DNA of 64,000 nucleotides. Origin: a virus. Position numbers and translations under genes: made by a program. The stretch's first letter is position 1, and the number at the start of each line of letters is the position of its first letter. The stretch lies in IMG/VR virus record IMGVR_UViG_3300043688_000007; one strand, written 5' to 3'. Positions 26,984 through 56,186 of the stretch are shown here, piece after piece. A model generated the notes under the pieces. It was not told the origin of the DNA. It searched no databases and saw nothing but the letters and a program-made list of their open reading frames with translations.

Positions 26984-27048
26984 CGATAGTTTAGATAGTA
27001 CGTTCGGCCGTTAGACCGTACCCGCCGCGCGGGTACTATCTTAACGAG
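26984..27048. promoter_or_regulatory. Inverted pair of 17-mer operator-like motifs
   Basis: cgatagtttagatagtac (26984-27001) and gtactatcttaacgag (27033-27048) face each other across ~31 bp, in the leader of the 26959 operon. Confidence 0.5.
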
Positions 27049-28373
27049 CTAATTATGGCGCGGTACTCGATACGCGGCTTGCCCTTCGCGCCGGTACGAA
27101 CCTTGCGGTGCATGATGAGTCCCTGCTCCTCAAGGTCGTCGAGGATCGGAGCCGACGGGGTGTTGTTGCTGAGTACGTCGGCAGTGATCTCCGCGCCAGA
27201 TGCCCAGGCATCGTCTTCGGCCTCAAGGTCGCCAGCAGCAACCTTCTCGTCGGCCTCGGTAGCGATCTGTAGCAGGAAGTCGTACACCTTGCCTTCCTGG
27301 AGCGGGCTGATACGCGGCTTGGGGTCGTCCGGCACCGAGAAGATACGCCGCGCGGAGAACATACAGAACTCCACCAGAGCCATCGCCGCCTTGACGTGAG
27401 GCCAGCCGATTTCCGGTGCGCAGTCCGCGAGTGCGTAGAGCAGAGCTAGCCTGATGACTTGAGTCTGCGCTCGGGCCGTGTACCGCGCGTAGTCCTCGCC
27501 TACAGCGTCGGCTATCTCTTCGATCTCAGGACCGATCTCATCCATCCAGCGATCCGCGACGTCATCGGCGATCGGGAACTTGGTCTTGGGAGCGATCCCG
27601 CGCATCTCCGCGAGGGCAGCGCTGATCGGGTCGGTGTTCAGCAGGATGCTATCCCACGCGTGGTTGATAGCTTCCTTGACCTCATCGGCCAGATGCTTCT
27701 TGCTGTTGTCGACCGCGAACGGATCGGTCCTGGTGACCCGCGCGGGCGCGGAGTAGAAATACAGCATCCGGCTTTCGAGCCCGCCCGTTAGCTTCTGTAG
27801 CGCGAGTAGCTCGCCCGGCGTGATCATGCCGACGAGGCTAATCATGTACTGGGTAGCGATCAACGGGGCCTGCTTGACCCTCTTGGCTGACAACGTCGAG
27901 CCGTCGTACGCGGTACGCATGCGCGGGCCGAACTTGCGCTGAGCCGACATGGCCGAAATGAACCTGCCGAACTCTTCCTCCAGGATCAGCATACGCGGGT
28001 CACCGTTTGGTGAGTCCGACACCTGCTCGATCATTGCCTCTGACGACTGGAGCCCGGACTCGATGTCATTCGCTGCCCACTCCGGTTCGGCTAGGCCCAG
28101 CAAAGCCTTGACTGCGTTCCATGCTGTACCCTTACGACCGCGAGCCCACTTGCCGACGATTAGCGTGAACAGCGCGCCAGGCTCGTCGTGCTCAAAGAAC
28201 TGGACGTGCGGCTGCCTGCCTATCGCGTTGCCGAAGCCCGTCATGAACATACCGAGGATCGAGGCCGGATCAGCGCCGGTCGTCTCGGAGAGCTTCAGCG
28301 CGACCTTGCCCGGAAGACCGTACAGCGCGTCGTCCGGGAGAACTGGCCTCAGAAGCTCGTCTCTAGTTGGCAT
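27036..28373 (-). CDS. DUF3987-like NTPase (helicase/loader-like), paralog 1
   Basis: IVGKWARGRKGTAW P-loop-like segment and LILEEEFGRF Walker-B-like segment. General resemblance to DUF3987 proteins and to 36395..37690. Confidence 0.55.
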   Translation of the reverse strand: MPTRDELLRPVLPDDALYGLPGKVALKLSETTGADPASILGMFMTGFGNAIGRQPHVQFFEHDEPGALFTLIVGKWARGRKGTAWNAVKALLGLAEPEWAANDIESGLQSSEAMIEQVSDSPNGDPRMLILEEEFGRFISAMSAQRKFGPRMRTAYDGSTLSAKRVKQAPLIATQYMISLVGMITPGELLALQKLTGGLESRMLYFYSAPARVTRTDPFAVDNSKKHLADEVKEAINHAWDSILLNTDPISAALAEMRGIAPKTKFPIADDVADRWMDEIGPEIEEIADAVGEDYARYTARAQTQVIRLALLYALADCAPEIGWPHVKAAMALVEFCMFSARRIFSVPDDPKPRISPLQEGKVYDFLLQIATEADEKVAAGDLEAEDDAWASGAEITADVLSNNTPSAPILDDLEEQGLIMHRKVRTGAKGKPRIEYRAIISSLR

Positions 28374-32300: not shown

Positions 32301-32435
32301 TCACCCCGCGATAGCTGCCGTGACCTGACAGATGCCCCAGCCGATGATTAGGCCGCGAGTGTTAGGGCTGACAGCGAACGCTAGGACGCCAGCCCAGTAG
32401 CCGATCATGGCCCACTTCTGACATCGCCAGTCCAT
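32301..32435 (-). CDS. Small membrane protein (44 aa)
   Basis: MDWRCQKWAMIGYWAGVLAFAVSPNTRGLIIGWGICQVTAAIAG. TGATG overlap with the upstream stop. Confidence 0.45.
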   Translation of the reverse strand: MDWRCQKWAMIGYWAGVLAFAVSPNTRGLIIGWGICQVTAAIAG

Positions 32436-33628
32436 CAGAACCTCGCACTTGCTATCTGGTGGTCGGTCATCTGCGTCTGGCGAACGTACTGGGCGAGGGC
32501 GTGCTGGAGAATCGACATGATGTCTTCGCACACACCGTAGTTCGTGTTGGGGATGGTGATGTGGACGGTAGCGAGCCCGGCCTGGTCTATGGTGACGCCG
32601 CCTTCGCCGGTGATGGCGATGGACTGCATGCCCATCTCTCGGGCGCGCTGGAGCGCTGCTATAATGTTGCGGCTCTCGCCGCTGACGGAGAACACGACGA
32701 GCACGTCATCCTTGTGGCCGAACTGTTCGAGCTGCCAACTGAAGATGCCGTTGTATCCGATGTCGTTTGCGAGCGCGGTAGTGAGAGCGTGGTTAGCGCA
32801 GAGGCTATGAACGTTGCGGTAGAGCGTGTCGACCGCGGCCATGTGCTTGGCGTGGTCGGTCGCCATGTGATCCGCGATGGCGGCGGCTCCACCGTTGCCG
32901 GCGGCGAAGACATAGCTGCCGTCGCTGTACGCCTTGTACAGGATGTCGGCGGCGTGCTCGACGAGCTTCTTGTCGACACGGCTAAGCGAGAGCGTAACCT
33001 CATCCGAGTAGTGGAGTAGGTAGCTGAGGATGCCTGAGTAGTTGTTGATCGGGAACTCGCTTGTGGACACGCCTGTGATCCTCTCGATGATATGAGTTGC
33101 GGCTTCGGCTAGGCTGTGGAAGTGGGGGACGACGGGGTGTAGCGCTGGGGGAGGTTCCGCGCCGAGGTATGCGCAACGCATGCCGCATCGGCGGGCCATC
33201 TCGACGTCAGTGATGCGGTCGCCTACCACCCAGCTGTCGTGCTGTTCTAGGTGCAGGTCCCTGATTGCGGCCAGGGCCATGCCCGGATTCGGTTTGTGGT
33301 CGTAGCTCTCCCGGGCGAATTCAGGATCGGAGCCTTCGGGGTGATGCGGGCTGAAGTAGAACGCATCAACGTGCGCTCCGTGTCTGGCTAGTTCTTGGTT
33401 GATGTAGCGGTTGACGGCATAGACCTCGTGGAGCGTGTAGAAGCCCCGCGCAACGCCACCTTGATTCGTGACGATAGCGACGGGGATGCCAGCCTGGTTG
33501 AAGCGACGGATCGCATCGATGGCGCCCGGTATGAATTGGACGCGCTCGATCCTGCCGACGTAGTGATAGTCCTCGACAATGGTGCCATCACGGTCGAGCA
33601 GGACGCCAGGCTTGCTACGAGTCGACAT
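32435..33628 (-). CDS. Bifunctional GmhB-like HAD phosphatase / GmhA-like SIS sedoheptulose-7-phosphate isomerase fusion
   Basis: N half: LLDRDGTIVED...VTNQGGVARG...HKPNPGM...VGDRITD (HAD-IIIA, heptose-1,7-bisphosphate phosphatase pattern). C half: VFAAGNGGAAAIADHMATD...VLVVFSVSGESRNIIAALQRAREMGMQSIAITG (SIS/GmhA pattern). Confidence 0.85.
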   Translation of the reverse strand: MSTRSKPGVLLDRDGTIVEDYHYVGRIERVQFIPGAIDAIRRFNQAGIPVAIVTNQGGVARGFYTLHEVYAVNRYINQELARHGAHVDAFYFSPHHPEGSDPEFARESYDHKPNPGMALAAIRDLHLEQHDSWVVGDRITDVEMARRCGMRCAYLGAEPPPALHPVVPHFHSLAEAATHIIERITGVSTSEFPINNYSGILSYLLHYSDEVTLSLSRVDKKLVEHAADILYKAYSDGSYVFAAGNGGAAAIADHMATDHAKHMAAVDTLYRNVHSLCANHALTTALANDIGYNGIFSWQLEQFGHKDDVLVVFSVSGESRNIIAALQRAREMGMQSIAITGEGGVTIDQAGLATVHITIPNTNYGVCEDIMSILQHALAQYVRQTQMTDHQIASARF

Positions 33629-34497: not shown

Positions 34498-35037
34498 CTA
34501 TCTTACCGTACGAATCGCCCGCGCGGAAGCCCCCTTTGCAGCTCGTTCGGGCGCGCCCCATGCAGAGTCGCGGAGCTTATCATCTGCATTCGCCCGTCGT
34601 ATGAATGCGAGCGCGTGACGTTCGGACATGGGCATGTCCGGGTCGCCTTTGAGATTGGTGACAGTCTTGTACGCGAGGGTACTGGATTGGCGGAAGAACT
34701 TACAGAGGACGTAGCTCGTCTCGCAGCAGAACATGATGCGTTCGGCGGTAGGCGAAACGTTTTCAGAGTTGGTGAGAGGTATGATCAATGCTACTGGGAA
34801 AAATTCTCGGGAAGCATCTGCTACTGCCAGGGCTTGCGCTGTGAAGCTGCCCTCTTCCGTGAATGTCTCCTTGTATACGATCCGCGCTGCGGTCGCGCCG
34901 TAGATGGACGAGCGCGGGATGCCTAGGATGGTGATTTCTGATGCGCCGTCTGGAGCGCTGTTTGACCCGGTTGATGTATCGCCCGGGACTATGCCCATGA
35001 CGTAGAGAGTGTTGCCGCTCACAATGCCTGCCTTCAT
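34498..35037 (-). CDS. Hypothetical protein
   Basis: 179 aa. First gene of the leftward unit diverging from the PrimPol island. Confidence 0.55.
   Translation of the reverse strand: MKAGIVSGNTLYVMGIVPGDTSTGSNSAPDGASEITILGIPRSSIYGATAARIVYKETFTEEGSFTAQALAVADASREFFPVALIIPLTNSENVSPTAERIMFCCETSYVLCKFFRQSSTLAYKTVTNLKGDPDMPMSERHALAFIRRANADDKLRDSAWGAPERAAKGASARAIRTVR
34499..34528 (-). promoter_or_regulatory. Class I-like promoter (CGTACGG-TAAGAT)
   Basis: On the - strand: GCGATTCGTACGGTAAGAT. Confidence 0.4.
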
Positions 35038-35183
35038 CGTGATTGATAACTGCTATATTCTGTTGGGCTAGCGTTCGGCTCCCTCCCGTAGTAGACTCGT
35101 ACGAATCGACTCTTCGCCCGATGATTCGATATGTACTTCAGCTTGCTGGACCCGGGCCTTTTTGCAACCTGGTCTGCGACCGA

Positions 35184-35216
35184 GGGCCACCAGGGGAACG
35201 CGACACCTGGTGGCCC
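35184..35216. other. 11-bp perfect hairpin in the 335-bp divergent intergenic region
   Basis: gggccaccagg-(11 nt)-cctggtggccc. Lies downstream of the leftward TAGAAT box at 35290-35295. Confidence 0.45.
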
Positions 35217-35372
35217 CTACGGTGCAGTCGCGCGGAGGCAGGGTTCCGGCAGACTGGAGCCTACTTTAGGAGGGAGGCCCACACTCGTGATTCTACCGTA
35301 CTTTTTCGGATCGCGCTACCCCCGAGTAATAGGGGGTTCTGCAATGGCATTCTGCAAAGGCTGGGGTAACAA

Positions 35373-36395
35373 GTGAATAGTCTCGGAGAAAGGACAGGCC
35401 CATACGGGAACACCGCCCTCAAATATATCAAGGCCGGATGGCCAGAGGCGATGCCCATATGGCAAGGCGGGGCCAAGGATAAGCAGCCGATGGTACGAGG
35501 GTATCACGGCCGTGATGGTACCTGGCCTGACGAAACAACAAGCACGATGTGGGCTGGCAGGTACGCCCGCGCGAACATAGCCCTGCGGCTGCCGCGGTGG
35601 ATCGTTGGGCTCGATGTCGACCACTACTCGGAGAAGTATGGCGGGGATTCCCTGGCCGAACTGCAGGACGAGCTGGGCCCGCTACCTGGGACGTTCGTCT
35701 CTACCTCGCGCGACGACGGCGTGAGCGGTATCAGGCTCTTCATGGTGCCTGGCGACTTCGCCGGGGCTGCGTGGCCGTCTCAGGCTTCGGTCGACATCGA
35801 CATGATTACCTGGTACGAGCGCTACGTGATCGTATCCGCGTCGGTGCACAAGAGTGGCCGGCCGTATCGCTGGCTGCTGCAAGATGAGTACGGCCACAGT
35901 ATGAAGCCGCTGCGCAATGATCGTGTCGTTCCTGCGCCGAGCGACATGGAGATGCTGCCGATCGAGTGGTGCGAGTACCTGACCGGGCTGGCCGGGAATG
36001 GTTCCGAGAAGTGGAATGATTCCAGTTTCGACGGCTCCGCGCGGCAATGGCTCATCGACTATGGCGGCGGCGAGCCGTGCAGGTACATCGAGGGCCGAGC
36101 CGTGCGTATGCTGGAGCGCATGAACGACGGTGGTTCGCTTCACGAAACTACGAAGCTTGCCGTGGCTCAGCTGGTGAAGGCTGCAGCCGAGGGGCATACC
36201 GGAATCAACTCTGCGCTCGCGCCGATACGTGAGCTGTTCATCTATAAGCTCGGCGCGCGGGGTGCGGGCGAGCGTAGGCGCGGGGAGGCCAAGGCAGTAC
36301 AGGAGTGGCGCGCCATGGTGAGCGGTGCCGTCGCGAAGTATGGGGGTGAGGTCGAGGACGAGGACACTGTCTGCAACGAGCTGGCGGGCTTCTGA
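35373..36395 (+). CDS. Bifunctional DNA primase/polymerase (PrimPol, N-terminal Prim-Pol domain)
   Basis: GTG start. ALKYIKAGWPEAMPI...ANIALRLPRWIVGLDVDHY...GGDSLAELQDELGPLPGTFVSTSR...SGIRLF is the typical Prim-Pol pattern. Confidence 0.8.
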   Translation: MNSLGERTGPYGNTALKYIKAGWPEAMPIWQGGAKDKQPMVRGYHGRDGTWPDETTSTMWAGRYARANIALRLPRWIVGLDVDHYSEKYGGDSLAELQDELGPLPGTFVSTSRDDGVSGIRLFMVPGDFAGAAWPSQASVDIDMITWYERYVIVSASVHKSGRPYRWLLQDEYGHSMKPLRNDRVVPAPSDMEMLPIEWCEYLTGLAGNGSEKWNDSSFDGSARQWLIDYGGGEPCRYIEGRAVRMLERMNDGGSLHETTKLAVAQLVKAAAEGHTGINSALAPIRELFIYKLGARGAGERRRGEAKAVQEWRAMVSGAVAKYGGEVEDEDTVCNELAGF

Positions 36396-37690
36396 TGGCG
36401 GCGGACGAGGAGTTTTGGGGCAGCTGCAAGGAGCTACGCCTGATACGTCAGTTCGCGCACTATCATGTAGGCAGTCCGTGGTCATACCTCGGATCGTGTA
36501 TGGCGCGCGCAGTTACTGCTGTGCCGTATAATGTGGTGATACCTGACATCATCGGCAACTACGTGTCGACTGGGATATACATAGCACTGGTAGGCGATCC
36601 CGGTCACGGGAAGGGCAGTTCTGACGGTGCGGCTGCCCGGCTGATGCCGTGCGATATATACTCATCAAAGCTAGGCAGCGGCGAGGGTATCACGCATCAG
36701 TTCGCCTACCGCGACAAGGCTGATGGGGAGCTACAGTGGCGTGAGCGCTCTATCCTGTTCGAGTCATCAGAGGCTGAGACTATGCGCGCCCTAGCTGGGC
36801 GCAAGGACACGACGCTGATGGGAGAGCTACGTAGCGCGTGGATGGGAGAGTCACTAGGCTTCGCGTACTCTGACGTCAGGAAGCGTCTAGTGCTTCCCTC
36901 ACTTAGCTACCGGCTTAGTGTCCTGGCATCATTCACTCCGAGTGTTAGCGATGTGCTTCTGGATGGGGTATATGAGGGCACGCCACAACGGTTCCTCTAT
37001 CTGCCAGTGAGTGAGCCCGAGCTACCCGACGAGGATGCCATCAAAAGGCCGAGGACGCAGCTACACCTGAATGTTCCTCCAGTTAGTGAACTAGACCTGG
37101 TCCAGGTTGAGGTGCCAAGCTGGGTGCGGTATGAGCTACGAGAGGATCACAGGGCAAAGGTGCGCCGTGAGTTCGGGCAGATGAGTGAGGGTGAACTTCT
37201 CGACACTCATATCAATCTGGTACGGCTGAAGGCTGCTTTCGCCCTTGGTCTAGTAACCAACCCCCATCGCCATGATTACTACATCTCTGAGGAGGACTGG
37301 GAGCTATCTGGGTTTGTTATGAACAAATCGCGCGAGACGCGTAATAGGATGATCGAAGCGGCAGAATCCGCGCGGCTGTCAAAGAACAAGAAGGAGGGCA
37401 AAGACCTCGGCGTTAGGTATGAGGCCGCTGATGAGCGTCGCAGGCTAGGTCCAGCAATGGAGCGTATCGAGGTGATACTCAGGGCCGCGAGAAAAGACGG
37501 CAATCCCATAATGAGTCCGGGTCACATTCGCCAGAAAATGAGTCCCAATCAGCGCAAGCTATTTGACGAGGCAGTCCAGCCTCTTATCAGAGACGGAAAG
37601 GTGGAAGAAGTGAAGGGAGTCATTGCTACTTCGGCGCAGGGCAGGCGGGCTCTTAGCGTTAGATTCCGGTGGGCGAAGCGAGCGATCTAA
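36395..37690 (+). CDS. DUF3987-like NTPase (primase-associated helicase/loader-like), paralog 2
   Basis: TGATG coupling to PrimPol. IALVGDPGHGKGSS P-loop. ILFESSEAE Walker-B-like segment. Confidence 0.6.
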   Translation: MAADEEFWGSCKELRLIRQFAHYHVGSPWSYLGSCMARAVTAVPYNVVIPDIIGNYVSTGIYIALVGDPGHGKGSSDGAAARLMPCDIYSSKLGSGEGITHQFAYRDKADGELQWRERSILFESSEAETMRALAGRKDTTLMGELRSAWMGESLGFAYSDVRKRLVLPSLSYRLSVLASFTPSVSDVLLDGVYEGTPQRFLYLPVSEPELPDEDAIKRPRTQLHLNVPPVSELDLVQVEVPSWVRYELREDHRAKVRREFGQMSEGELLDTHINLVRLKAAFALGLVTNPHRHDYYISEEDWELSGFVMNKSRETRNRMIEAAESARLSKNKKEGKDLGVRYEAADERRRLGPAMERIEVILRAARKDGNPIMSPGHIRQKMSPNQRKLFDEAVQPLIRDGKVEEVKGVIATSAQGRRALSVRFRWAKRAI

Positions 37691-37977
37691 CCCATGGCAG
37701 CAAATCTAACCCTAAATCTAACCCACCTAACCCTTTCGACCTGCGGCGATACCGCTAAAATCGGTGGGTTAGATGGGTTAGATGGCATCGGGAGAGAAAA
37801 AGGGAAAAAGTATCAAAGAGAAAACTACAGGGAGAAGATAGCAAACATAGTCTGACCAGGTATTATATATAATATACAAACAAAAAGTGTTCACGTATTA
37901 TAAAGAGTTTGATATGTATTTCGAGAGTCGATTTTTTCCCGGATACGATCTAACCCATCTAACCCATCTAACCCACC
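37685..37977. repeat. Ori-like locus: ATCTAACCC iterons in direct and inverted orientation flanking a very AT-rich core
   Basis: Direct copies at 37685, 37704, 37716 (plus acctaaccc at 37725). Inverted gggttagat x2 at 37766-37783. Three tandem copies at 37948-37974. The core includes tattatatataatatacaaacaaaaag. Confidence 0.65.
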
Positions 37978-38047
37978 GCACGCGGAGGTACGAACTGGCG
38001 AAAAATATCGGCGGCAAAATCTGGCAATCAGACTGCAAGGAGGGACC

Positions 38048-38224
38048 ATGAGTTCAGACCCTTATATATGGTTTCTGACGGGAATGTCGGAAAATGAGTG
38101 GAAGGAGATTTATCATTGTTACGAAGAATGCTGTCACGTATCGACAGTGAAGAGTCTAGGCGCACGTGTCCCGTGTGGACCTCACTGCGAGGTCGACCTA
38201 GACTGGTCGTTCTTCCACGGGTAG
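38048..38224 (+). CDS. Small Cys-rich protein (58 aa; below ORF-track cutoff)
   Basis: AAGGAGGG 3 nt upstream. MSSDPYIWFLTGMSENEWKEIYHCYEECCHVSTVKSLGARVPCGPHCEVDLDWSFFHG. Visibly lower GC than its surroundings. Confidence 0.5.
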   Translation: MSSDPYIWFLTGMSENEWKEIYHCYEECCHVSTVKSLGARVPCGPHCEVDLDWSFFHG

Positions 38225-38233
38225 AATACCCTT

Positions 38234-38671
38234 ATGGCAGATCACAGGAAGCACACTACATTCCCCTTTATACGCAAGCGGGTGCCGCTACCAACTGCGC
38301 GTACGAACGCGCGGAGATCACTACTGCTCATCTCGCCCATCGAGGACGCATTCTGGCGTGCACATGAAAAGCTACGTCTGCGGCCGCTAACCGGGCTACA
38401 GCGTCAATATCGCGTCGGCCCATATCGGCTCGACTTTGCGTTGCCAAGGCAGATGGTTGGCATTGAGCTAGACGGTCACCGTACGCATAGCAGTACGCAG
38501 GCTATTGCGGCCGACCGGATACGGCAACGCTGGTTCGAGGCCAATGGCTGGTACATCATTAGGTTCGGCGGCTTGGAGATACACCAGGATGCTGAAGCCT
38601 GCGTACGCGAGGCAGCAGCAATGGTGCAGGGCCACAAGTACAGGACAAGACACAGAACAGGGAGACGTTGA
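38234..38671 (+). CDS. DUF559 / Vsr-like endonuclease-domain protein
   Basis: YRVGPYRLDFALPRQMVGIELDGHRTHSS...RIRQRWFEANGWYIIRF is the DUF559 pattern. Confidence 0.7.
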   Translation: MADHRKHTTFPFIRKRVPLPTARTNARRSLLLISPIEDAFWRAHEKLRLRPLTGLQRQYRVGPYRLDFALPRQMVGIELDGHRTHSSTQAIAADRIRQRWFEANGWYIIRFGGLEIHQDAEACVREAAAMVQGHKYRTRHRTGRR

Positions 38672-38686
38672 CGCTATGGCAGGGAA

Positions 38687-39082
38687 TTGCAGCATTCCTG
38701 GCAATCGGAGCGATATGCGCTATCTACGCCTGGATCGCAATACACCTATACGAAGGGACGTGGTTCCGTGACTTATACAGGCAGGCGTCGAATCCCATTG
38801 CCGCCGGATTGGCCTCAAATCCGGGCATTCGTCCTCAGGCGCGATCCGGTATGCACCTGGGGCAGCCTCGATGAGGACATGGCAGAGCCCGGGCGCTGTC
38901 CCAACCGATCGACCGACGCGGATCACATAGGCGAGCCCTGGGACCATCGTCCAGCCCAACTCCGAGGCCTATGTACTAACCATCACGCGACTCGCACAGG
39001 CCGGCAGGGCGCGGCAGGTGCAGCTCGAGTTGCACGTTCCCGTAAGCGCCCACCGGAACCACACCCAGGATATGTAAAATGA
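38687..39082 (+). CDS. HNH endonuclease
   Basis: WPQIRAFVLRRDPVCTW...STDADHIGEP...LRGLCTNHHATRTG. The N-terminal extent is uncertain. Confidence 0.7.
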   Translation: MQHSWQSERYALSTPGSQYTYTKGRGSVTYTGRRRIPLPPDWPQIRAFVLRRDPVCTWGSLDEDMAEPGRCPNRSTDADHIGEPWDHRPAQLRGLCTNHHATRTGRQGAAGAARVARSRKRPPEPHPGYVK

Positions 39083-39174
39083 GTGACAGAGTTCTCTTCA
39101 TACTTGCAGCAGTGCTGGCAGTGGCAATTATCGTGATCATCGCCTTGTTCTATCGCGATATCAACGTCGTGTAG
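39079..39174 (+). CDS. 31-aa hydrophobic peptide
   Basis: MSDRVLFILAAVLAVAIIVIIALFYRDINVV. ATGA overlap with the HNH stop. Confidence 0.4.
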   Translation: MSDRVLFILAAVLAVAIIVIIALFYRDINVV

Positions 39175-39191
39175 TCGACCGTAGTCGACCC
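39169..39191 (+). repeat. Two tandem GTAGTCGACC decamers (same motif as the 49-kb array)
   Basis: gtGTAGTCGACCGTAGTCGACCc, ~115 bp upstream of the DUF2637/Lsr2-like gene. Confidence 0.6.
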
Positions 39192-39306
39192 TCGTCGAGC
39201 TGCAGGGCCCATCTCCGCGACTCGCCGGTGCGACCTGGGGTTTATCGCTTTTCGGCCGTCCCAGCGTTAGGCTTAAACCCTGTTCGTACCAACGAAAGGC
39301 AGGAAA

Positions 39307-40146
39307 GTGGACAGAGCGCGAAAGATAGTGGCTGCAGTAACTGGAGGGTCGCTGTGGCTGGTCATCCTCGTGCCCGTGCTAGCTATCAGCTGGGTCGGGT
39401 TCTACACGATTGCCCGGGCTGTGGGCGTGCCGCCGCTATTCGCTATGGGCATGTCAGCAGCCTTCGACGGTGTAGCGATCTTCGCTGCACGGACGGGCCT
39501 AAAGCACAGGCGCAAGGGCTTCAGCGGTTACCTTGCACGTATCACCGTCCTCATGTTCGTAGCGCTCGGCGTGTTCGTGCAGAGCTTCCACAGCGATACG
39601 ACCACGTGGGTGCACAACCACGCCTGGGTAGTCTGGGCAGTCGCCCCGATCGCTGCAGCGATATGCTACGAGCTGCACCTCGGCTGGATTCATCGCAAGC
39701 AACTCATCAAGCACGGCTATACCCATCCCTCTGCAAAGAGCGGCTACGGCCCTGCAACATGGCTCATGATCGGCGGTACGCTCCGTGAGTATCGCAACGG
39801 CCTGCGCGCGCGGAGGGACTTCATCTCTGCAACGAACCTTGCACGGTTCCGCATCGAAGAGGATGAGCAGCCCGTGATACCCCCTGCAGTGCCGCCGAAG
39901 CCTGCGCTGAAGCCGCGTCCTCGTCCAAGGCCGCAGCCGAAACCAGAGCTGCAGGGACCTCCCGGTCCACGGCTCGTACATTCCACAAGGCCAGCTTCCA
40001 AGCGTCGTGCAGTTACCGAGAACATGAAGATCGCTGCATGGTGCCGCGAGCAGGGCATCCAACTGGGCTACCGAGATCGAGTGCCTGCAGAGGGACTGCG
40101 CCGTTACCGTGCAGCACACCCTTCAACCAGTCGTGCAGCAGCCTGA
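39307..40146 (+). CDS. DUF2637-like multi-pass membrane protein fused to Lsr2-type C-terminal DNA-binding domain
   Basis: GTG start. 4-5 TM spans in the first ~170 aa. Pro-rich linker. C terminus KIAAWCREQGIQLGYRDRVPAEGLRRYRAAH aligns with Lsr2 [29 protein letters not shown]. Confidence 0.7.
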   Translation: MDRARKIVAAVTGGSLWLVILVPVLAISWVGFYTIARAVGVPPLFAMGMSAAFDGVAIFAARTGLKHRRKGFSGYLARITVLMFVALGVFVQSFHSDTTTWVHNHAWVVWAVAPIAAAICYELHLGWIHRKQLIKHGYTHPSAKSGYGPATWLMIGGTLREYRNGLRARRDFISATNLARFRIEEDEQPVIPPAVPPKPALKPRPRPRPQPKPELQGPPGPRLVHSTRPASKRRAVTENMKIAAWCREQGIQLGYRDRVPAEGLRRYRAAHPSTSRAAA

Positions 40147-47639: not shown

Positions 47640-48060
47640 CAAAGCGGTCGAGTGTAGTCGAGTACCAACTAGGCCGGGCCCGGCTAACCTACAAGTCCTA
47701 CCGGATCACTAGGCAATGATCTCGAAACCGTCAATCCCGACCGTCAAGCTAGGGAATGCACTTCCCCGACCGCGACCGGTCGAGTGTAGTCGACCTCCCG
47801 GCCCGGGGCCTCATGTAGTCGACCTTACTCGACTACAACCCTCGCTCGGGATCGAAGCGTCAACCGGTCGACTAGGGTCGACTACATGACCGCCCGGCCC
47901 GGGCGAAAGACGTCAATCCCGACCGGTTCGGTAGACTACATTCCCGACCGGTTCGGTAGGTTTGACGTTCGGGCCCCGGACGCGCGCCGCGCCGCCGAGA
48001 TGTAGTCGACCCTAGTTGACCCTAGGCTTGTGTAGTCTAGGGTAGTCGGGGGACCTAACT
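47640..48060. repeat. Dispersed GTAGTCGAC motifs in both orientations, paired with GGCCCGGGCC-type GC palindromes and other short direct repeats
   Basis: gtgtagtcga at 47652, 47784, 47814 and 48001. Inverted gtcgactac at 47829 and 47877. gtcaatcccgaccg x2. tcccgaccggttcggtag x2. ccgggcccgg-like palindromes after several copies. Confidence 0.7.
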
Positions 48061-48197
48061 TAAAAAAGTTCGTCTTTTCGGCCGAAACCGGGAACTTACG
48101 GCGGAAGGGAAGCGTTATAGGTAGTAGTTCGGTTAGTTCGGTTCGGGAGGTTAGCGCGAGCGGTTCGCGCGCCCGTACCGTGGAAGGTAGGTTTACG

Positions 48198-48599
48198 ATG
48201 AAAGCTCTTACGGAGTACGCGCGAGAGTCCGCTAGCCCGACGATGGAAGCGTTTGCCGACTTCCTTATCTCGGAGGTCTACGGCGGGACCCTCCCGAGGG
48301 GGATTGACGAAAAGGCGTTCCGCGAGGGGGTCCGCCTCGGCGGCTCGACGCGCGGTTTCTTCCAGAAGTCGGAGTACTGGAAGAACGACGCGCGTAACTA
48401 CCTCGCGAACGTCGACGCGCGACGCGCGGAGCGGGCGGCAGAGCGCGCCGAGAAGGCTAAGGCGTCGGCCGAGAAGGCGCGCCTACGGGCCGAGAAGGCG
48501 ATCGCGGACGCCGAGGCGATCGCCGAGGCGGCCCGCGCGAAGCTCGCCGCGCTAGCGGACGACGCGGACGACGCGGACGACGCGGAGGACGCCGCGTAG
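48198..48599 (+). CDS. Paralog B of the 25019..25711 family (conserved N domain + Ala/Glu/Arg coiled coil + poly-Asp tail)
   Basis: Start MKALTEYARE after GGAAGG. LTEYARESASPTMEAFADFLISEVYGGTLPRGIDEKAFREGVRLGGSTRGFFQKSEYWKNDARN. It is the only gene inside the repeat hub. Confidence 0.6.
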   Translation: MKALTEYARESASPTMEAFADFLISEVYGGTLPRGIDEKAFREGVRLGGSTRGFFQKSEYWKNDARNYLANVDARRAERAAERAEKAKASAEKARLRAEKAIADAEAIAEAARAKLAALADDADDADDAEDAA

Positions 48600-48615
48600 T
48601 TCGAACGTTCGAACG

Positions 48616-48643
48616 AAACCCGGCCGGGAAACCGGCCGGGTTT
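48616..48643 (+). terminator. Rho-independent-type terminator
   Basis: aaacccggccgg-gaaa-ccggccgggttt, followed by a T-rich stretch. Confidence 0.7.
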
Positions 48644-48700
48644 TCGTATTTTCGGACGCCCGGATTTTCGAATATTAGTACGTATCGCCTAACGATATAT

Positions 48701-48957
48701 CGCGTTCGTTCGTACGTTCGTTCGATCGCTCGTTCGTTCGAACCCTCCCGGATCGCGGCCGGATTTTCGAACGTTCGTTCGTTCGCTCGTTCGTTCGAAT
48801 CGTCCTCGGAATCTGGGCGCGGTTCGAACGTTCGTTCGTTCGCTCGTTCGTTCGAACCGGCCCCGGGGAAAGTCCATCTTTTCGAACGGCCGTTCGATCG
48901 AACGTACGAACGTATCGTAGCACGATATACCGCGTCCGTTCGAACGTTCGTTCTAGC
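48701..48957. repeat. (CGTT)n / TTCGAA-rich blocks
   Basis: Three ~35-43-bp blocks (48701-48743, 48766-48800, 48823-48857). The last two are identical over ~34 nt: ttcgaacgttcgttcgttcgctcgttcgttcgaa. Flanked by CGTATCG..CGATATA.CGCG direct repeats. Confidence 0.7.
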
Positions 48958-49437
48958 GTACGGTCGACTAGGGTCAACTCTAGCCGGGTACGGTCGAGCG
49001 TAGTCGACTAGGGTCAACTACGCTCGGGTAGGGTAGAGTGTAGTCGAGTAGGTACTACCCTAGTTGACGCTAGACGGGTGTAGTCGACTAGGTACTACCC
49101 TAGTTGACGCTAGACGGGTGTAGTCGACTAGGTACTACCCTAGTTGAGACTAGACGGGTGTAGCCGAGGCTAGACGGGCGTAGGTGACTATAGGCGGGTG
49201 TAGTCGACCCCGGGCGAGTGTAGTTGACCTTACCCTAGTGTACTCTAGCCTAGTCGAGTGTAGTCGACCCCAGGCGGGTGTAGTCGACCCTAGCCGACCA
49301 TAGTTGAGGCTAGACGAGTGTAGTCGACCCTAGCCGGGCGCGCTTGACCCTAGTCGAGTGTAGTCGACCCCGGTCGAGTGTAGTTGACCCCACTCGACTA
49401 CAGTCGAGCCCACTCGGTGGGGGTCGACCCCCTTGCA
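48958..49437. repeat. Helically phased array of about 45 TAGTCGAC-type decamers (with 20-bp and 40-bp super-periods)
   Basis: Nearly every 10th base from 48961 to 49430 starts a decamer such as tagtcgaccc, tagttgacgc or tagacgggtg. GTGTAGT[C/T]GAC at 49038, 49078, 49118, 49198, 49218, 49258, 49278, 49318, 49358 and 49378. Confidence 0.9.
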
Positions 49438-52008: not shown

Positions 52009-52108
52009 ACCCGTGTGCTGGTCCAGAAAACAGTGGTCCCGTTGCCCCCAAGCTTCAGACCGACTCTTGCCCTGGGCCAGCACACGGAGAGGAAGCCGGA
52101 GTAATTCC

Positions 52109-52627
52109 ATGCCAGCGCACACCAAACCTCCTGCCCGCCGTACGGGGGCAGGAACTGGACGAGGCGACGACCCACGCTTTATCAGGGTCAGTACCGGTGT
52201 TGCGTCTGACAAGAGCTTCCCAATACCCACTGCGGACCCGAAGTGGCACCCGAAGGCCAGGAGCTGGTACAACTCGCTCAGGCGTTCTGGCCACTCGCAG
52301 TGGTTTGAGCCGTCGGACTGGGCAACAGCTGTCGCTGCGGCTGACGCCTATAATGTGTTCCTACGGTCGTACAATGCTAGTATTCTAGCCCAGTTCGTTC
52401 GGCTCAGTGAGCGTCTTGGAGCGACACTCACTGATCGCAAGCGCAGCCGTATTGAGCTGGAGGAGCCCGTGCTGGAAGATGAGGATGAAAAAGCAGCTGA
52501 CGAGGCAGTCCAAGGATGGCAAGGCCGTCTGCATTCTGTCCAGTTAGCTATTACCGACCAGGTTGGCGAAACAGCCTGGCGTAAGGTGGTAGACGGGCAT
52601 GTCCAGCATTACAGCAGCAATTGTTAG
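52109..52627 (+). CDS. Terminase small subunit (actinophage type)
   Basis: Internal ATG after GGAGAGGAAG. KWHPKARSWYNSLRRSGHSQWFEPSDWATAV...LGATLTDRKRSRIELE pattern. Position before terL. Confidence 0.6.
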   Translation: MPAHTKPPARRTGAGTGRGDDPRFIRVSTGVASDKSFPIPTADPKWHPKARSWYNSLRRSGHSQWFEPSDWATAVAAADAYNVFLRSYNASILAQFVRLSERLGATLTDRKRSRIELEEPVLEDEDEKAADEAVQGWQGRLHSVQLAITDQVGETAWRKVVDGHVQHYSSNC

Positions 52628-52768
52628 CGTAACTCGAAATTCCACGGGAACTGTCACCTAGCACGCCCTTCACTGTGCATAAGTGAGGTTATCGAACTAG
52701 CCTAACTTGTACCGTGGGGGTACTGCGTGCTTAGCGTGTTCTGGGGCGATTCGTTTATTCAGTGCGTC

Positions 52769-52900
52769 ATGGTCGCATATGGCACCTTGATGCTGTTTTC
52801 GTTCTCGATATTCTTTGGCCTGGGCATACTTCTCGCGCGCTACTTCAAGCCGCGCGGAGAACATCGTTTGTGCCGTGTTGATCGTTGGGGTGACCGCTGA
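52769..52900 (+). CDS. Candidate 43-aa hydrophobic peptide between terS and terL
   Basis: MVAYGTLMLFSFSIFFGLGILLARYFKPRGEHRLCRVDRWGDR. TGATG overlap with the terL start (GTG at 52727 also possible). A mirror ORF exists on the - strand. Confidence 0.35.
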   Translation: MVAYGTLMLFSFSIFFGLGILLARYFKPRGEHRLCRVDRWGDR

Positions 52901-54561
52901 TGGCACCCCACAGCACAGTCGCGCCCCGCGACCGTACCGTGACAATACCGGACGGTATTCCCAAGTTGACTCTCGGCTGGGAAGCCATTCATTGGGCATC
53001 CAAGTATCTAAGGCAGCCAGATGGTCCTAACACTGGTGAGCGGTGGGAGTTCATTGAGAGTCAGGTACGTTTCATTCTGTGGTGGTACGCTCTCGATGAT
53101 CGCGGCAGATGGCTTTTTTATCATGGTGTCCGTCGATACCCCAAAGGCGCGGGTAAGAGTCCTTTTGCCGCTGTCCTATCCCTGATCGAGCTATTGGCAC
53201 CAGTACGCCTCAAGGACTTCGACAAGCGGGTCATAGGAGGATGTGTTGGTCGGCCAGTGGGTATGCCCTTGGTGCAAATTGCAGCAACAAGCCACGATCA
53301 GGCTAATGTCAATACGATGCGGATGGTGCGTGCGCTCCTCCCACCCAAATCACGGATACGTGGTGATTATGACGTTGAGACTGGGAAGACTGTTTTCCAC
53401 ATCCCCGGTGGCGGACAGCTCATGGTCATCACTTCAAGTCCTGTATCAGAAGAGGGCGCGCTCGTAACATTCGCAATCCTTGACCAGACAGAGAGCTTCT
53501 ACCCTGTTAATGGTGGTGTCGCGCTCGCGGAGGTTCTCGACCGTAACGTCGGCAAGTCAGGTTCACGACTACTGGAGACGAGTAATGCCTGGACTCCCGG
53601 TCTGGAATCAGTTGCAGAGAATACCTTTGACGCCTGGGTCGCTCAAGAAGAGGGCAGACTACGCGGTCGCGGACGTATCCTCTATGATAGCAGGATGGCT
53701 CCACCAGACATTGACTTCGAGGACGACGAATCAATCCTCAGAGGTGTACAGTATGCTTATGGCGATGCATTTTGGGTTGATGCCGACGACATCGTCCAGA
53801 ACCGCATCCTCAGCCCAAAAAATCCGCTCGATGTTTCTAAGCGGTATTATCTGAACTGGCCTGAGGCCGCAGAGGATGCTTGGTGTACACAGCAGCAGTG
53901 GTCGAAGATGGCGGACCCTGCGTTCTACATCGAGGACGGCTCCGACATTACAATGGGCTTCGACGGTAGCCGAGTCAATGACGCTACGGCCTTGATAGGA
54001 TGTCATGTCAAGACAGGCTTCACGTTCAGCCTAGGCATCTGGGAGACTGATGATGGCCGGGTGCCGATTCCCGTATATGAGGTCGACGCGGCAGTCAAGG
54101 CAGCCAAGGAGCGGTGGAACGTCGTTGCGTTCTTCGCCGATGTCAACGAGTGGGAAGAGCACACCAAGATAACCTGGCGAGATATGTTTGAGGAAGACTT
54201 GCCAGTCTGGTCGGTCCCCGCAGGACGCGACCCTCAGCCCGTGGCCTGGGATATGCGCTCGCACATCGCGGAGTTTACCATGGCGTGCGAAATGGTGCTA
54301 GGCGAGATTGAGAGCGGGACGTTTGTGCACGACGGCGACAGCTTCCTCGGTCGCCATGTTACGAACGCTCGGCGACGCCCCAATAGGTGGGGAACCAGTA
54401 TCGCCAAGGAGAGCCCGAAGTCATCACGCAAGATTGACGCGTGTGTGGCGATGATAATGGCCCGCCACGCGCGGAGGCTGGCCCTATCGAGCAAGACGCT
54501 CAAGGAACAGCAGAAGGAAGCTGAGCGCGTTCACAAGCGAGTTGTCTGGAGCTTCTCATGA
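52900..54561 (+). CDS. Terminase large subunit
   Basis: 553 aa. Walker A-like RRYPKGAGKSPFAA. Typical order terS-terL-portal. Confidence 0.9.
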   Translation: MAPHSTVAPRDRTVTIPDGIPKLTLGWEAIHWASKYLRQPDGPNTGERWEFIESQVRFILWWYALDDRGRWLFYHGVRRYPKGAGKSPFAAVLSLIELLAPVRLKDFDKRVIGGCVGRPVGMPLVQIAATSHDQANVNTMRMVRALLPPKSRIRGDYDVETGKTVFHIPGGGQLMVITSSPVSEEGALVTFAILDQTESFYPVNGGVALAEVLDRNVGKSGSRLLETSNAWTPGLESVAENTFDAWVAQEEGRLRGRGRILYDSRMAPPDIDFEDDESILRGVQYAYGDAFWVDADDIVQNRILSPKNPLDVSKRYYLNWPEAAEDAWCTQQQWSKMADPAFYIEDGSDITMGFDGSRVNDATALIGCHVKTGFTFSLGIWETDDGRVPIPVYEVDAAVKAAKERWNVVAFFADVNEWEEHTKITWRDMFEEDLPVWSVPAGRDPQPVAWDMRSHIAEFTMACEMVLGEIESGTFVHDGDSFLGRHVTNARRRPNRWGTSIAKESPKSSRKIDACVAMIMARHARRLALSSKTLKEQQKEAERVHKRVVWSFS

Positions 54562-56186
54562 TAGTCGACCTTGCGGATGTGACCGAACTCGGTCAGCAGA
54601 TGCTACAGCTCCGAGCAATGGAGCAGACAAGACTTGACAAGATTGCCCGCTACATGCGCGGAAAGCATCAGCAGCCGTACGCGCCCAAGGGAGTCAATGC
54701 TGAGTATCGTTGGATCATGTCGAAGGCCAAGCGCAACTTTCTGCCGCTTGTGGTATCCGTGATCTCGGAGAACTTGCACGTAGATGGTTACAAGCCATCC
54801 GGCACCACGACTGTCGAGACGGCATCCAGTACTGATCCCGACGACGCCTGGGATGCGTTCCGCGCGAACCGTATGATCTCTCGTCAGCACGGTGTTCACC
54901 GGTCTGTTTGCAAGTATGGCTCGGCTTACACCGTGGTTCTCCCGGGCACGATGGCACGGGATGAAGAGCTGGAGGCTGACGATGTGCCAGTTATGCGTCC
55001 GGTTAGTCCTCGGCGGATGACAGCCTTCTACGCCGATGACATTGACGACGAATGGCCGCAGGTGGCTATTGAGGTCCGCGTCACCGGTAACCCGATGCAG
55101 TATAACGAACAGCGCGTGATAGTGACGCTCTACGATGATATGACTCGTTACATCCTTGTTAGCAATACGACTGGCGTTGTGTCGAATGTCCAGCAGATTA
55201 GTCTTCGGATAGCTGACCCCAGCGATCCGTTCATCAATGGCCAGGCCCCCATCATGAACCACGGGCTTGGAGTTTGCCCTGTCGTCCGCTTCCTGTATGA
55301 GGCCGACCTCGATGGCGAGACTGACTGCTCGGGCGAGGTCGAGCCGCTCATCCCAGTTCAGGACCAGATCAACGCTACAACGTTCAATCTAATGATGGCC
55401 GAGCAATACCAAGCATTCAAGCAGCGTTGGGTCACTGGTATGGCCCCGTCAGACGAGTCAGGCCGTCCCAAGCCTCCATTCCAGCCCGGTGTCGACAGAG
55501 TGTGGGCAGCCGAGGACGCGGCAACCAAGTTTGGAGAATTCACCGAGACGCACCTACAGCCATATATCGACAGCCGCGAAGCCGGTATCAGGCACATGTC
55601 AACAATCTCCCAGGTTCCTCCGTACCACCTACTGGGCCAGATTGCAAACCTATCAGCCGAAGCGCTGGCCGCCGCGCGGGATGGACTTGACCGTAAGATC
55701 GAGGAACTCCAGGCAATCCTGACTGATCCATGGCGGAACTGCTTCCGGCTTAATGCGCTAGCTTCAGGCGACAAGAAGGGATGGAATGATCTCAATGGAG
55801 AAGTCGTCTGGCGTGACACCTCGGCTCGCGCCTTCAGCGCAACTATTGACGGCCTTGGCAAGGCTGCTCAAATGCTTGGCATCCCTGTTGAGGAGCTATG
55901 GCGACTCATTCCGGGCGCAACCGCAGACGATGTCAATGCTTGGGTGCGTGCAAAGCAGGAGTACACCGCGAAGGATGTCGTCAAGGATGCTGTCGCCGCA
56001 GCTATGCAGAGTCAGCCTCAGTACGCCAACGTTCAGCAGCAGGTCGGCGGAGGTTCCGGCGGTGGCGGTGTTCAGACGTCAGTTCCCGTACAGGTGCCGG
56101 CTGGGACAGTTGGCAAGGTAATCGGGACGAACAAGGCCAAGGAGAGCAAGCTGGCTACGGGTGGCGGTGGCGTGAATGTCCATTGA
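54558..56186 (+). CDS. Portal protein (SPP1 gp6-like)
   Basis: 542 aa. ATGA overlap with terL. Composition and position typical of portals. Confidence 0.85.
   Translation: MIVDLADVTELGQQMLQLRAMEQTRLDKIARYMRGKHQQPYAPKGVNAEYRWIMSKAKRNFLPLVVSVISENLHVDGYKPSGTTTVETASSTDPDDAWDAFRANRMISRQHGVHRSVCKYGSAYTVVLPGTMARDEELEADDVPVMRPVSPRRMTAFYADDIDDEWPQVAIEVRVTGNPMQYNEQRVIVTLYDDMTRYILVSNTTGVVSNVQQISLRIADPSDPFINGQAPIMNHGLGVCPVVRFLYEADLDGETDCSGEVEPLIPVQDQINATTFNLMMAEQYQAFKQRWVTGMAPSDESGRPKPPFQPGVDRVWAAEDAATKFGEFTETHLQPYIDSREAGIRHMSTISQVPPYHLLGQIANLSAEALAAARDGLDRKIEELQAILTDPWRNCFRLNALASGDKKGWNDLNGEVVWRDTSARAFSATIDGLGKAAQMLGIPVEELWRLIPGATADDVNAWVRAKQEYTAKDVVKDAVAAAMQSQPQYANVQQQVGGGSGGGGVQTSVPVQVPAGTVGKVIGTNKAKESKLATGGGGVNVH

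Follow-up and report, generated by a model that had tools for sequence, protein, structure and literature searches.

We analysed 64,000 nt of the IMG/VR virus record IMGVR_UViG_3300043688_000007 (hereafter the window, to which all coordinates refer), which represent most of a tailed phage genome. In this genome, a gene for a primase-polymerase (PrimPol) is followed by a gene for a putative NTPase/helicase, and the stop codon of the helicase gene is followed in turn by an AT-rich element with arrays of short repeats, or iterons. An initial annotation of this DNA had argued from the layout that the element is a candidate replication origin, and comparative evidence from relatives now supports that proposal. 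Our analysis indicates that the element is probably a replication origin that is read by the C-terminal domain of the helicase. By analogy with characterized systems, the best reading of the segment at ~37656-37978 is that it is built like the origins of self-loading initiator helicases of the superfamily 3 (SF3) type. This reading is supported by the conservation of the architecture in 11 metagenomic relatives and of its essentials in five cultured actinophages, by the covariation of the iterons with the helicase C-terminus, and not with the helicase core, PrimPol or the downstream genes, and by a layout that matches the characterized origins of Staphylococcus aureus pathogenicity island (SaPI) Rep (PMC9371898), pRN1 and P4 alpha (PMC4234260).

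From this evidence we infer protein-DNA binding, melting, priming and origin function of the element in vivo. In the proposed mechanism, the C-terminal winged helix of the helicase (36395-37690) would read the 8-9-bp iterons (ATCTAACCC in the window), and the oppositely oriented iteron groups that flank an AT-rich segment of ~165 nt would position helicase oligomers on both sides. The AT-rich centre would melt, the adjacent PrimPol (35373-36395) would make the first primers, and the DnaE-type polymerase of the phage (12332-15511) would extend these primers, probably in both directions.

Repeat arrays around an AT-rich segment

We use the term iteron for the lineage-specific 8-9-bp repeat, which in the window is the 9-mer ATCTAACCC. 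A 9-mer search of both strands of the 64 kb located exact copies on the + strand at 37685, 37704 and 37716, on the - strand at 37766 and 37775, and again on the + strand at 37948, 37957 and 37966, where they form a perfect 9-bp tandem. A copy with one mismatch, ACCTAACCC, is found at 37725 on the + strand. The four direct copies, the inverted pair (37766-37783) and the three-copy tandem (37948-37974) described in the initial annotation were all recovered, and so was the overlap of the first copy with the end of the NTPase gene: the stop codon of the helicase (ATC TAA, 37688-37690) falls within the first iteron (37685-37693). Eight exact copies and one variant lie inside 37685-37974 (~290 nt), while about 0.5 exact copies of a 9-mer would be expected by chance on both strands of the 64 kb. 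Thus, the iterons are clustered far beyond chance. The only exact copy outside the element is at 6502, so that eight exact copies in the 341-nt element compare with one in the remaining 63.6 kb. When the window was scanned with no preset motif, the element was among the three strongest local 8-mer clusters.

The arrays contain a perfect inverted repeat of 24 nt, in which 37762-37785 pairs with 37955-37978 across 169 nt. The initial annotation had described an inverted repeat of ~23 bp; the repeat is real, although the coordinates given for its right arm (37952-37974) were off by a few bases. An AT-content profile bore out the description of the enclosed DNA as strikingly AT-rich. GC content is 0.31 in 100-nt windows at 37800-37949, as compared to 0.587 for the whole window, and the lowest-GC stretch of 150 nt in the entire window is located in the element (0.32; next lowest, 0.40). 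Profile matches agreed with the identification of the two adjoining genes as PrimPol and NTPase. The genes and the parts of the element are as follows.

35373-36395, + strand: PrimPol (archaeo-eukaryotic-type primase-polymerase, AEP); matches Pfam PF09250 (E=1.7e-18) and PHROG DNA primase (E=5e-36)
36395-37690, + strand: NTPase/helicase (DUF3987/D5-like, SF3-type), putative origin-binding initiator; matches PHROG 28894 (E=6e-48) and 11515 (E=2e-42)
37412-37687, + strand: helicase C-terminal domain (~aa 340-431), predicted winged helix and proposed iteron reader, from an AlphaFold2 (AF2) model, Foldseek and divergence
37656-37664, - strand: possible extra iteron GCGTTAGAT with one mismatch, within the helicase coding sequence (CDS), in codons of a wing strand (V-R-F)
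37685-37733, + strand: distal left array of four direct iterons (37685, 37704, 37716 and the variant at 37725)
37737-37754, + strand: conserved spacer block CGACCTGCGGCGATACCG between the direct and inverted iterons, with invariant columns ACCTG.G...A over 9 loci
37766-37783, - strand: proximal left array of two tandem inverted iterons (GGGTTAGAT twice)
37784-37947, no strand assigned: central AT-rich segment of 164 nt, GC 0.35, A/G-rich on the left and T-rich on the right; proposed DNA-unwinding region
37842-37880, no strand assigned: conserved core CAAACATAGTCTGACCAGGTATTATATATAATATACAAA, which contains the 14-nt palindrome TATTATATATAATA at 37861-37874
37948-37974, + strand: right array of three perfect tandem direct iterons with a 9-bp period
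37987-38030, + strand: conserved downstream box GGTACGAACTGGCGAAAAATATCGGCGGCAAAATCTGGCAATCA, kept in all 9 aligned loci

Relatives were obtained by a protein search with the helicase, followed by contig look-ups. The search returned 12 relatives with 55-79% identity and many with 25-38%; the distant relatives are often fused PrimPol-helicases of ~730-950 aa. Scans of IMG/VR and GTDB for helicase relatives found none, and a metagenome scan found 2 loci only. We compared the DNA of 11 independent metagenomic relatives (L001, L003, L006, L007, L008, L010, L011, L012, L025, L026 and L027), whose helicases are 55-81% identical to that of the window. In these relatives the helicase stop codon is followed by a gap of ~300-450 nt, or ~770 nt in L026, where the gap holds unannotated DUF559-like sequence.

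The same plan was found throughout. On the left, all 11 relatives have 2-5 loosely spaced direct repeats that begin at or near the helicase stop codon, followed by a conserved spacer (..ACCTGCGGCGATACCG..AAAA) and then, again in 11 of 11, by a tandem inverted pair with 8-9 bp spacing. In length, the AT-rich centre spans 164-192 nt across the 11 loci measured, with 8 loci at 164-169 nt, and its GC content is 0.31-0.40, as compared to 0.54-0.59 for the whole loci. On the right there are 2-5 direct copies, three in most relatives and usually in tandem with 7-10 bp spacing, and most relatives have one extra inverted copy just to the left of this array. The right array is followed by a conserved box, GGTACGAACTGGyGAAAAwTATCGG.GGCAAAtTTCA. 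In every locus the right array is of the same type as the left array, the locus's own motif is strongly concentrated in the element, and the element was never found away from the helicase stop codon.

Conservation of the 9-mer in relatives had been suggested as a check on the origin proposal. The layout proved to be conserved in all 11, whereas the repeat sequence is lineage-specific, with ATCTAACCC, GCCTAAGC, ACCTAAGC, ACCTACCC, GCCTACCC, ACCGACCC, GTCTACCCG and GTCTACsCG as the iterons across loci. The 10-nt consensus sequences are given below.

Window: cATCTAACCC
L007: cGCCTAAGCC
L008: TACCTAAGCc
L010 and L026: CACCTAAGCC
L011, L027 and L006: cACCTACCCg
L025: CGCCTACCCG
L003: CACCGACCCG
L001: CGTCTACCCG
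L012: CGTCTACgCG

The essentials of this architecture extend to five cultured actinophages with helicases that are 30-34% identical. In all five, a local dip in GC content (0.42-0.47, versus 0.64-0.70 for the locus) is flanked by the phage's own repeats in both orientations, which begin at the helicase stop codon or no more than ~50 nt after it. The top 8-mer occurs 4-7 times at the element, whereas no other interval of these loci has more than 3-4 copies. For four of the five phages, the GenBank record annotates the DNA of the element as a CDS for a hypothetical protein. These CDS calls may be spurious, or they may overlap a cis-acting site. The repeats and the calls are as follows.

BetterKatz: repeat CCAGCAAACC
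Reyja: repeat CCTGGAAA; CDS at L013 3712-3942 (gp57)
Santhid: repeat CCTGGAAA; CDS at L029 2712-2942 (gp52)
prophiGD12-2: repeat GGCCGACAC; CDS at L028 2724-2975 (gp33)
Dulem virus 32: repeat CGTGGCCA; CDS at L030 2760-3494

Gene calls also overlie the element in the metagenomic group. In the window, an ORF (open reading frame) of 53 aa at 37694-37855 on the + strand was rejected as a gene because its product, MAANLTLNLTHLTL..., is generated by the iterons, and because the gap of the relatives has no gene calls save one. That single call is a 47-aa ORF in L002 that is uncalled on the identical L001 sequence. The call for the P0010 helicase (L006 2254-3645, 463 aa) reads through the left iteron array and so acquires a ..TYPATYPWQATYP.. 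tail. Inverted copies comparable to the possible extra iteron at 37656-37664 occupy the same place in L007, L008, L010, L011 and L006, and were not seen at the equivalent place in L001, L003, L012 and L025. They coincide with codons for L/V-R-F in the last strand of the wing, in which arginine is encoded by AGA where the iteron reads TTAGAT and by AGG where it reads TTAGGT or GTAGGT. The conserved codons alone may account for this in-gene iteron, or it may be a genuine additional site.

The perfect inverted repeat suggests another explanation, in which a hairpin or cruciform is the selected feature and the 9-mers are incidental. Such a structure could act in RNA, as a terminator, small RNA or leader, or in DNA that is single-stranded or extruded, as in the stem-loop origin of pRN1. 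Consistent with this idea, folding of 37680-38047 as RNA gave a structure far more stable than those of shuffled sequences (z=-4.95), and the arms change together between relatives in a way that resembles compensatory change. In addition, the pRN1 origin, which is located 3' of a gene for a PrimPol-SF3-winged-helix protein, is a stem-loop that needs its integrity (PMC4234260). However, conservation does not extend to the long helix. The inverted pair and the right array are perfectly complementary over at most 9 to 24 nt, depending on the locus, and over just a single repeat unit (9-10 nt) in L008, L010, L026 and L006; in L026 a competing pairing on the left side is longer (22 nt). With 5-8 direct copies (7 in the window) and 2-4 inverted ones, most copies can never pair, and what is conserved is the repeat unit and the orientation pattern. 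Because both arrays share a 9-bp period, the perfect 24-nt repeat of the window appears to be a by-product. A search of Rfam at gathering and permissive thresholds found no family (best E=0.38, far below gathering). We consider a selected hairpin very unlikely; a DNA cruciform, moreover, would still be an origin, and would rival the proposed mechanism rather than the function.

The candidate reader of the repeats

An alignment of the helicases showed that the ATPase core is well conserved and that the C-terminal ~90 residues are the most divergent part. Over 12 loci, iteron distance was correlated with the distance between helicase C-termini (Mantel r=0.65, p=1e-4) and not with that between ATPase cores (r=0.04, p=0.33); the partial correlation with the C-terminus, controlling for the core, was 0.70 (p=1e-4). 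Where the nearest neighbours of a locus differed between the two domains, the C-terminal neighbour had the closer iteron in 7 of 8 loci. Four pairs behave as natural chimaeras.

P0008 and P0009: core 91% identical, C-terminus 51%, iterons different
P0013 and P0003: core 84%, C-terminus 38%, iterons different
P0013 and P0008: core 65%, C-terminus 72%, iteron same
Window and P0002: core 88%, C-terminus 43%, iterons different

Other candidate readers were rejected. PrimPols that are 80-82% identical are found with different iterons (82% for L001 and L003). The small downstream ORFs are non-homologous between loci or absent (L010 and L011), and in the one homologous pair (L006 and L012, 63% identical) the iterons differ. 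On the basis of these sequence comparisons, the initiator is most likely the NTPase/helicase itself, acting via its C-terminal domain, and not PrimPol. The initial annotation had pointed to the initiator and primase genes beside the iterons together; of the two, the helicase is the more likely initiator.

We also fixed blind predictions before fetching the DNA of three further relatives (P0012, P0006 and P0005), two of which were informative. The core of P0012 is nearest to P0010 and its C-terminus to P0003, and its locus carries CACCTAAGCC, as predicted from the C-terminus and not from the core. P0006 carries ACCTACCC as predicted, which is a trivial case. The outcome for P0005 is considered below with the other evidence that does not favour the origin reading.

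The coding region for the C-terminal domain adjoins the left arrays, and therefore co-inheritance alone could yield part of the correlation. However, all 9-12 copies in one element are homogenized to one type, and the right array matches the left across a centre that tracks separately: divergence of the central segment follows the helicase core (r=0.56) at least as well as the C-terminus (0.46). The downstream box at 37987-38030 likewise does not follow the C-terminus (r=0.19, not significant). These observations argue for a functional coupling beyond linkage. The spacer block at 37737-37754 also does not covary with the iterons.

The C-terminal domain was modelled alone with AF2 at a predicted local distance difference test (pLDDT) score of 79, with a core of ~90, as a long helix, a helix-turn-helix and a four-stranded beta wing. 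A Foldseek search of the PDB with this model returned mainly winged-helix domains, with probabilities of up to 0.99. The matches included MarR and FabT on DNA, a ROK repressor on its operator and linker histone globular domains, as well as the replication terminator protein and an RNA polymerase III subunit. The search against the PDB returned no specific similarity to a known origin-binding domain. Judging from the model, a winged-helix fold for this domain is a reasonable but not a strong assignment.

The arrays might instead serve transcription. In that case the AT-rich core would be a promoter for the rightward genes or a leftward transcript, and the arrays would be operators at which the helicase winged helix or another regulator binds and switches expression, with no origin function. 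The AT-rich segment does contain weak sigma-70-like sequences, TCGAAA-16-TATAAT on the - strand (37924 to 37897) and TATACA-17-TATTAT on the + strand (37873-37901), and a scan of 37400-38300 gave 3 sigma-70-like matches, two of them in this segment, as compared to 0.8 expected. TATAAT-like hexamers are conserved in the core, the element lies between two blocks of genes on the same strand, and the conserved box at 37987-38030 follows it. On the other hand, promoter-like hexamers are expected in any AT-rich DNA, and no -35 element at the proper distance is conserved in the aligned loci. Classical autoregulation is unlikely because the arrays are downstream of the gene for the covarying protein. 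Furthermore, ~9-12 sites in a fixed, two-sided and opposite orientation around a spacer of ~165 nt fit helicase-loading origins (PMC9371898) better than operators, and the only protein segment that covaries belongs to a helicase. We therefore regard a purely transcriptional control region as unlikely, while noting that the two readings are compatible, since an origin can contain a promoter.

In the conserved core at 37842-37880 the mean pairwise identity is 0.77, as compared to 0.55 for the whole central segment and 0.69 for the DNA that encodes the helicase core. The core may serve as a site for priming or for a host factor, or as a promoter. A scan of IMG/VR with the 17-mer ACCAGGTATTATATATA from the core was not useful for finding relatives: its 10 matches, all in AT-rich (20-40% GC) large phages and lacking extended similarity, are attributable to chance. 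The downstream box may act as a promoter or leader for the genes that follow, or as an auxiliary element of the origin.

Characterized origins, other DNA sites and contrary evidence

The layout of the element agrees in each point with that of the origin described for SaPIs, in which 6-12 iterons directly follow rep and surround an AT-rich centre, with two or more per side pointing in opposite directions (PMC9371898). The C-terminal winged helix of SaPI Rep reads the iterons and gives origin specificity, different elements have different iterons matched to their own Rep, and the primase is encoded upstream or fused (PMC9371898). Similarly, the iterons of the window, like those of the 11 relatives and five cultured phages, directly follow the helicase ORF; a segment of 164 nt with a GC content of 0.35 is bounded by the pair at 37766-37783 (-) and the three copies at 37948-37974 (+); the helicase has a predicted C-terminal winged helix and a primase gene directly upstream; and in the phage group the iterons differ by lineage and track the helicase C-terminus. 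In contrast to SaPIs, the window belongs to a complete tailed phage (tape measure, minor tail, portal and terminases) rather than a satellite island, and its primase is an AEP PrimPol on its own polypeptide. SaPI iterons are penta- or hexanucleotides, as compared to 8-9 bp in the phage group, which also has the extra distal array of direct repeats and sequence-conserved blocks other than iterons. At the sequence level, the profile of the helicase family matched no solved structure. By analogy, the element would work like a SaPI-type origin, and we do not claim membership of that family.

The plasmid pRN1 offers a second parallel. Its ORF904 protein combines an AEP PrimPol, an SF3 helicase and a C-terminal winged helix, and the origin is located 3' of the gene (PMC4234260). 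The origin is a 100-nt stem-loop with no iterons, and the integrity of the stem is needed for replication (PMC4234260). The authors of that study proposed the same arrangement for Bordetella phage BIP-1 and noted the parallel that the winged helix of P4 alpha binds repeats in its origin (PMC4234260). The window shares with pRN1 the PrimPol (PF09250), the predicted C-terminal winged helix and a candidate cis element directly downstream of the gene, its NTPase is putatively of the SF3 type, and the proposed sequence of binding 3' of the protein's own gene, hexamer assembly, melting and priming (PMC4234260) is also alike. Unlike pRN1, the window has iterons and a long stem that is not conserved (9-24 nt), and its PrimPol and helicase are encoded by two overlapping genes, which are fused only in distant relatives. 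The pRN1 context is crenarchaeal, whereas that of the window is bacterial (actinophage-like).

P4 alpha is a primase/SF3-helicase initiator whose C-terminal winged helix binds short origin repeats in both orientations (PMC4234260). The window is alike in its set of primase and helicase with a predicted C-terminal winged helix and in having short repeats in both orientations. The primases differ, as that of P4 is of the bacterial Toprim type and that of the window is an AEP PrimPol. P4 also needs a second repeat cluster, crr, several kb from ori. In the window, which covers 64 kb of the 69.7-kb source contig, we found one cluster and the stray exact copy at 6502, and the proposed origin abuts the stop codon of the initiator gene. 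Origins of theta plasmids (RepA, pi and TrfA) and lambdoid phages have initiator-specific repeats beside an AT-rich unwinding region, linked to the initiator gene; the lambda origin is inside the O gene. Their iterons are typically 17-22 bp and all direct, and the initiators of theta plasmids and lambda O are not themselves helicases and depend on one recruited from the host or phage. The window resembles these origins in the tight linkage of a repeat set and an AT-rich region to the initiator gene, and differs from them in that the proposed initiator is a helicase and the 8-9-bp iterons are in both orientations. In the literature, we found no account of the layout of the window in phages that have a PrimPol/DUF3987 module.

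Terminase small-subunit sites and plasmid centromeres typically have repeat arrays as well, and the element could in principle be a cis site for another DNA transaction: a pac or cos site for packaging, a centromere for partition, a site of recombination, or the two inverted ends of a small mobile element linked to the DUF559 gene. A DUF559/Vsr-like endonuclease gene does begin ~260 nt downstream of the right array and is near the element in most relatives. However, this gene varies in position and presence (in L026 it is not near the element as a called gene), while the element is constant. The terminase genes (52013-54561) are ~14-15 kb from the element, no partition genes were found near it, and the repeats covary with the helicase C-terminus and nothing else. 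A role of this kind is therefore extremely unlikely.

The window contains another repeat zone, at 47640-49430, which is apparently non-coding, is densest at 48960-49420 and has a normal GC content (0.58-0.61). It comprises four copies of GCGGACGAC at 48555-48592, with more copies of TGTAGTCGA at 47646-48048, and 57-nt repeats rich in TTCGTTCG/CGTT at 48700-48930. The latter precede an array of ~460 nt in a strict 10-nt phase, with units such as GTGTAGTCGA and CCCTAGCCGA and with periods of 10, 20, 40 and 80 in Tandem Repeats Finder. Roughly 2.6-3.5 kb separate the zone from the terminase genes downstream of it, and its neighbourhood yielded no partition genes. Possible roles for the zone are packaging recognition, a function like that of a centromere, or a second origin. 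A second helicase of the DUF3987 family is encoded at 27036-28373 on the - strand and matches the Pfam family more strongly (E=2.8e-16) than the helicase next to PrimPol, which is below the cut-off (21.2 versus 27 bits). The two helicases are not detectably similar (BLASTP E=3.3). The second helicase was rejected as the owner of a second origin, there being no iteron cluster downstream of its gene. An initiator helicase and a fork helicase may share the labour in this phage, which is a guess.

Several observations weigh against the reading of the element at 37.8 kb as an origin recognized by the helicase C-terminus. The full-length AF2 model of the helicase was poor (pLDDT 47.6), with low confidence for the helicase core and confident prediction only for residues ~350-426, and for this reason the C-terminal domain alone was used in the fold search. 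The winged-helix matches from Foldseek had weak E-values (0.017 or higher). A profile of the helicase built from 13 members gave nothing meaningful at E<=1 against all PDB chain sequences, a set assumed to include the cryo-electron microscopy structures of Rep1 and PriRep5 (PMC9371898). Since this profile finds no solved structure, what connects the window with SaPI Rep and pRN1 is architecture and not demonstrated homology. The blind prediction for P0005 was ambiguous, because its iteron, GCCTACCC, is one base from the predicted ACCTACCC and also one base from GTCTACCC, the type of its nearest core relative. The conservation of the core (0.77) exceeds what a simple unwinding element would need. 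The genome also encodes the second DUF3987 helicase and contains the repeat zone at ~47.6-49.4 kb, which could be another cis-acting site and is possibly an additional or alternative origin. Finally, a GC-skew profile, which had been suggested as a check, showed no cumulative extremum at 37.8 kb; we list it here as uninformative rather than contrary, because the skew of phages mostly follows transcription.

Genomic surroundings and implications

Besides the replication genes described above, the window encodes a minor tail protein, an exonuclease, endonuclease VII, ThyX and the following.

150-3668: tape measure protein
12332-15511: DnaE-type polymerase
32435-33628, - strand: fused HAD-phosphatase/SIS-domain protein (phosphoheptose-isomerase-like)
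38234-38671: DUF559/Vsr-like endonuclease
52013-52627: small terminase subunit
52900-54561: large terminase subunit
54558-56186: portal protein

The terminase is closest to those of Corynebacterium, Mycobacterium and Gordonia phages, at no more than 51% identity, so that the phage is actinophage-like and lacks a close relative in culture. When 35000-39500 was compared with GenBank phages by blastn, the sole match was one of 108 nt to Gordonia phage GTE8, and no DNA similarity was found among PLSDB plasmids.

The stop codon of PrimPol overlaps the start codon of the helicase (ATGA), and the two are separate genes here and in close relatives; PrimPol is syntenic in all relatives whose contigs reach far enough. 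The PHROG families matched by the NTPase (28894 and 11515) correspond to the C-terminal halves of fused phage 'DNA polymerase/primase' proteins, and a Walker-A-like motif, GDPGHGKGSS, is conserved in the helicase family. A 58-aa ORF also lies downstream of the element. In its behaviour, the DUF559/Vsr-like gene resembles a mobile gene of the homing type. L001 lacks a call for it in the 6 kb that follow the element, but L002, whose helicase and element are identical to those of L001, has the gene; L003 carries it as part of a longer ORF of 252 aa (5153-5911), and in L026 the DUF559-like sequence is present at ~1560-1880 but uncalled. The HAD-phosphatase/SIS gene, a few genes upstream of PrimPol, has syntenic copies in L001, L004 and L005 and is an unusual auxiliary gene for a phage replication region.

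The pairing of winged helix and iterons allows a further reading, which we offer tentatively and consider rather doubtful: the winged helix and the iteron set might form a swappable cassette for origin specificity that is under diversifying selection, with the AT-rich core as a fixed start site. This idea derives from the observation that helicase cores with 84-91% identity carry different cassettes, while distant cores share one. If it were true, ~10 iterons on both sides of a separately inherited centre would have been homogenized to the type of the cassette, and the core at 37842-37880 would serve the conserved PrimPol or a host factor as a specific start, rather than being a generic unwinding element. 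It would also imply an arms race or incompatibility over replication initiation among co-infecting phages, prophages and satellites.

Returning to the origin reading itself, the layout is classical, and some added value comes from the natural swaps of specificity, the apparent absence of a description or annotation of the element in actinophages, and the conserved core. Replication origins of actinobacteriophages have rarely been mapped, and the analysis provides a concrete origin prediction for an uncultured phage that extends to the cultivable relatives BetterKatz, Reyja, Santhid and prophiGD12-2. The variants of the winged helix paired with variants of the iteron represent a natural data set for a protein-DNA recognition code, with possible use in orthogonal replicons and origin-specific vectors for Actinobacteria. 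The element, if it is the origin that it appears to be, would extend the self-loading helicase logic of staphylococcal satellites to complete tailed phages.

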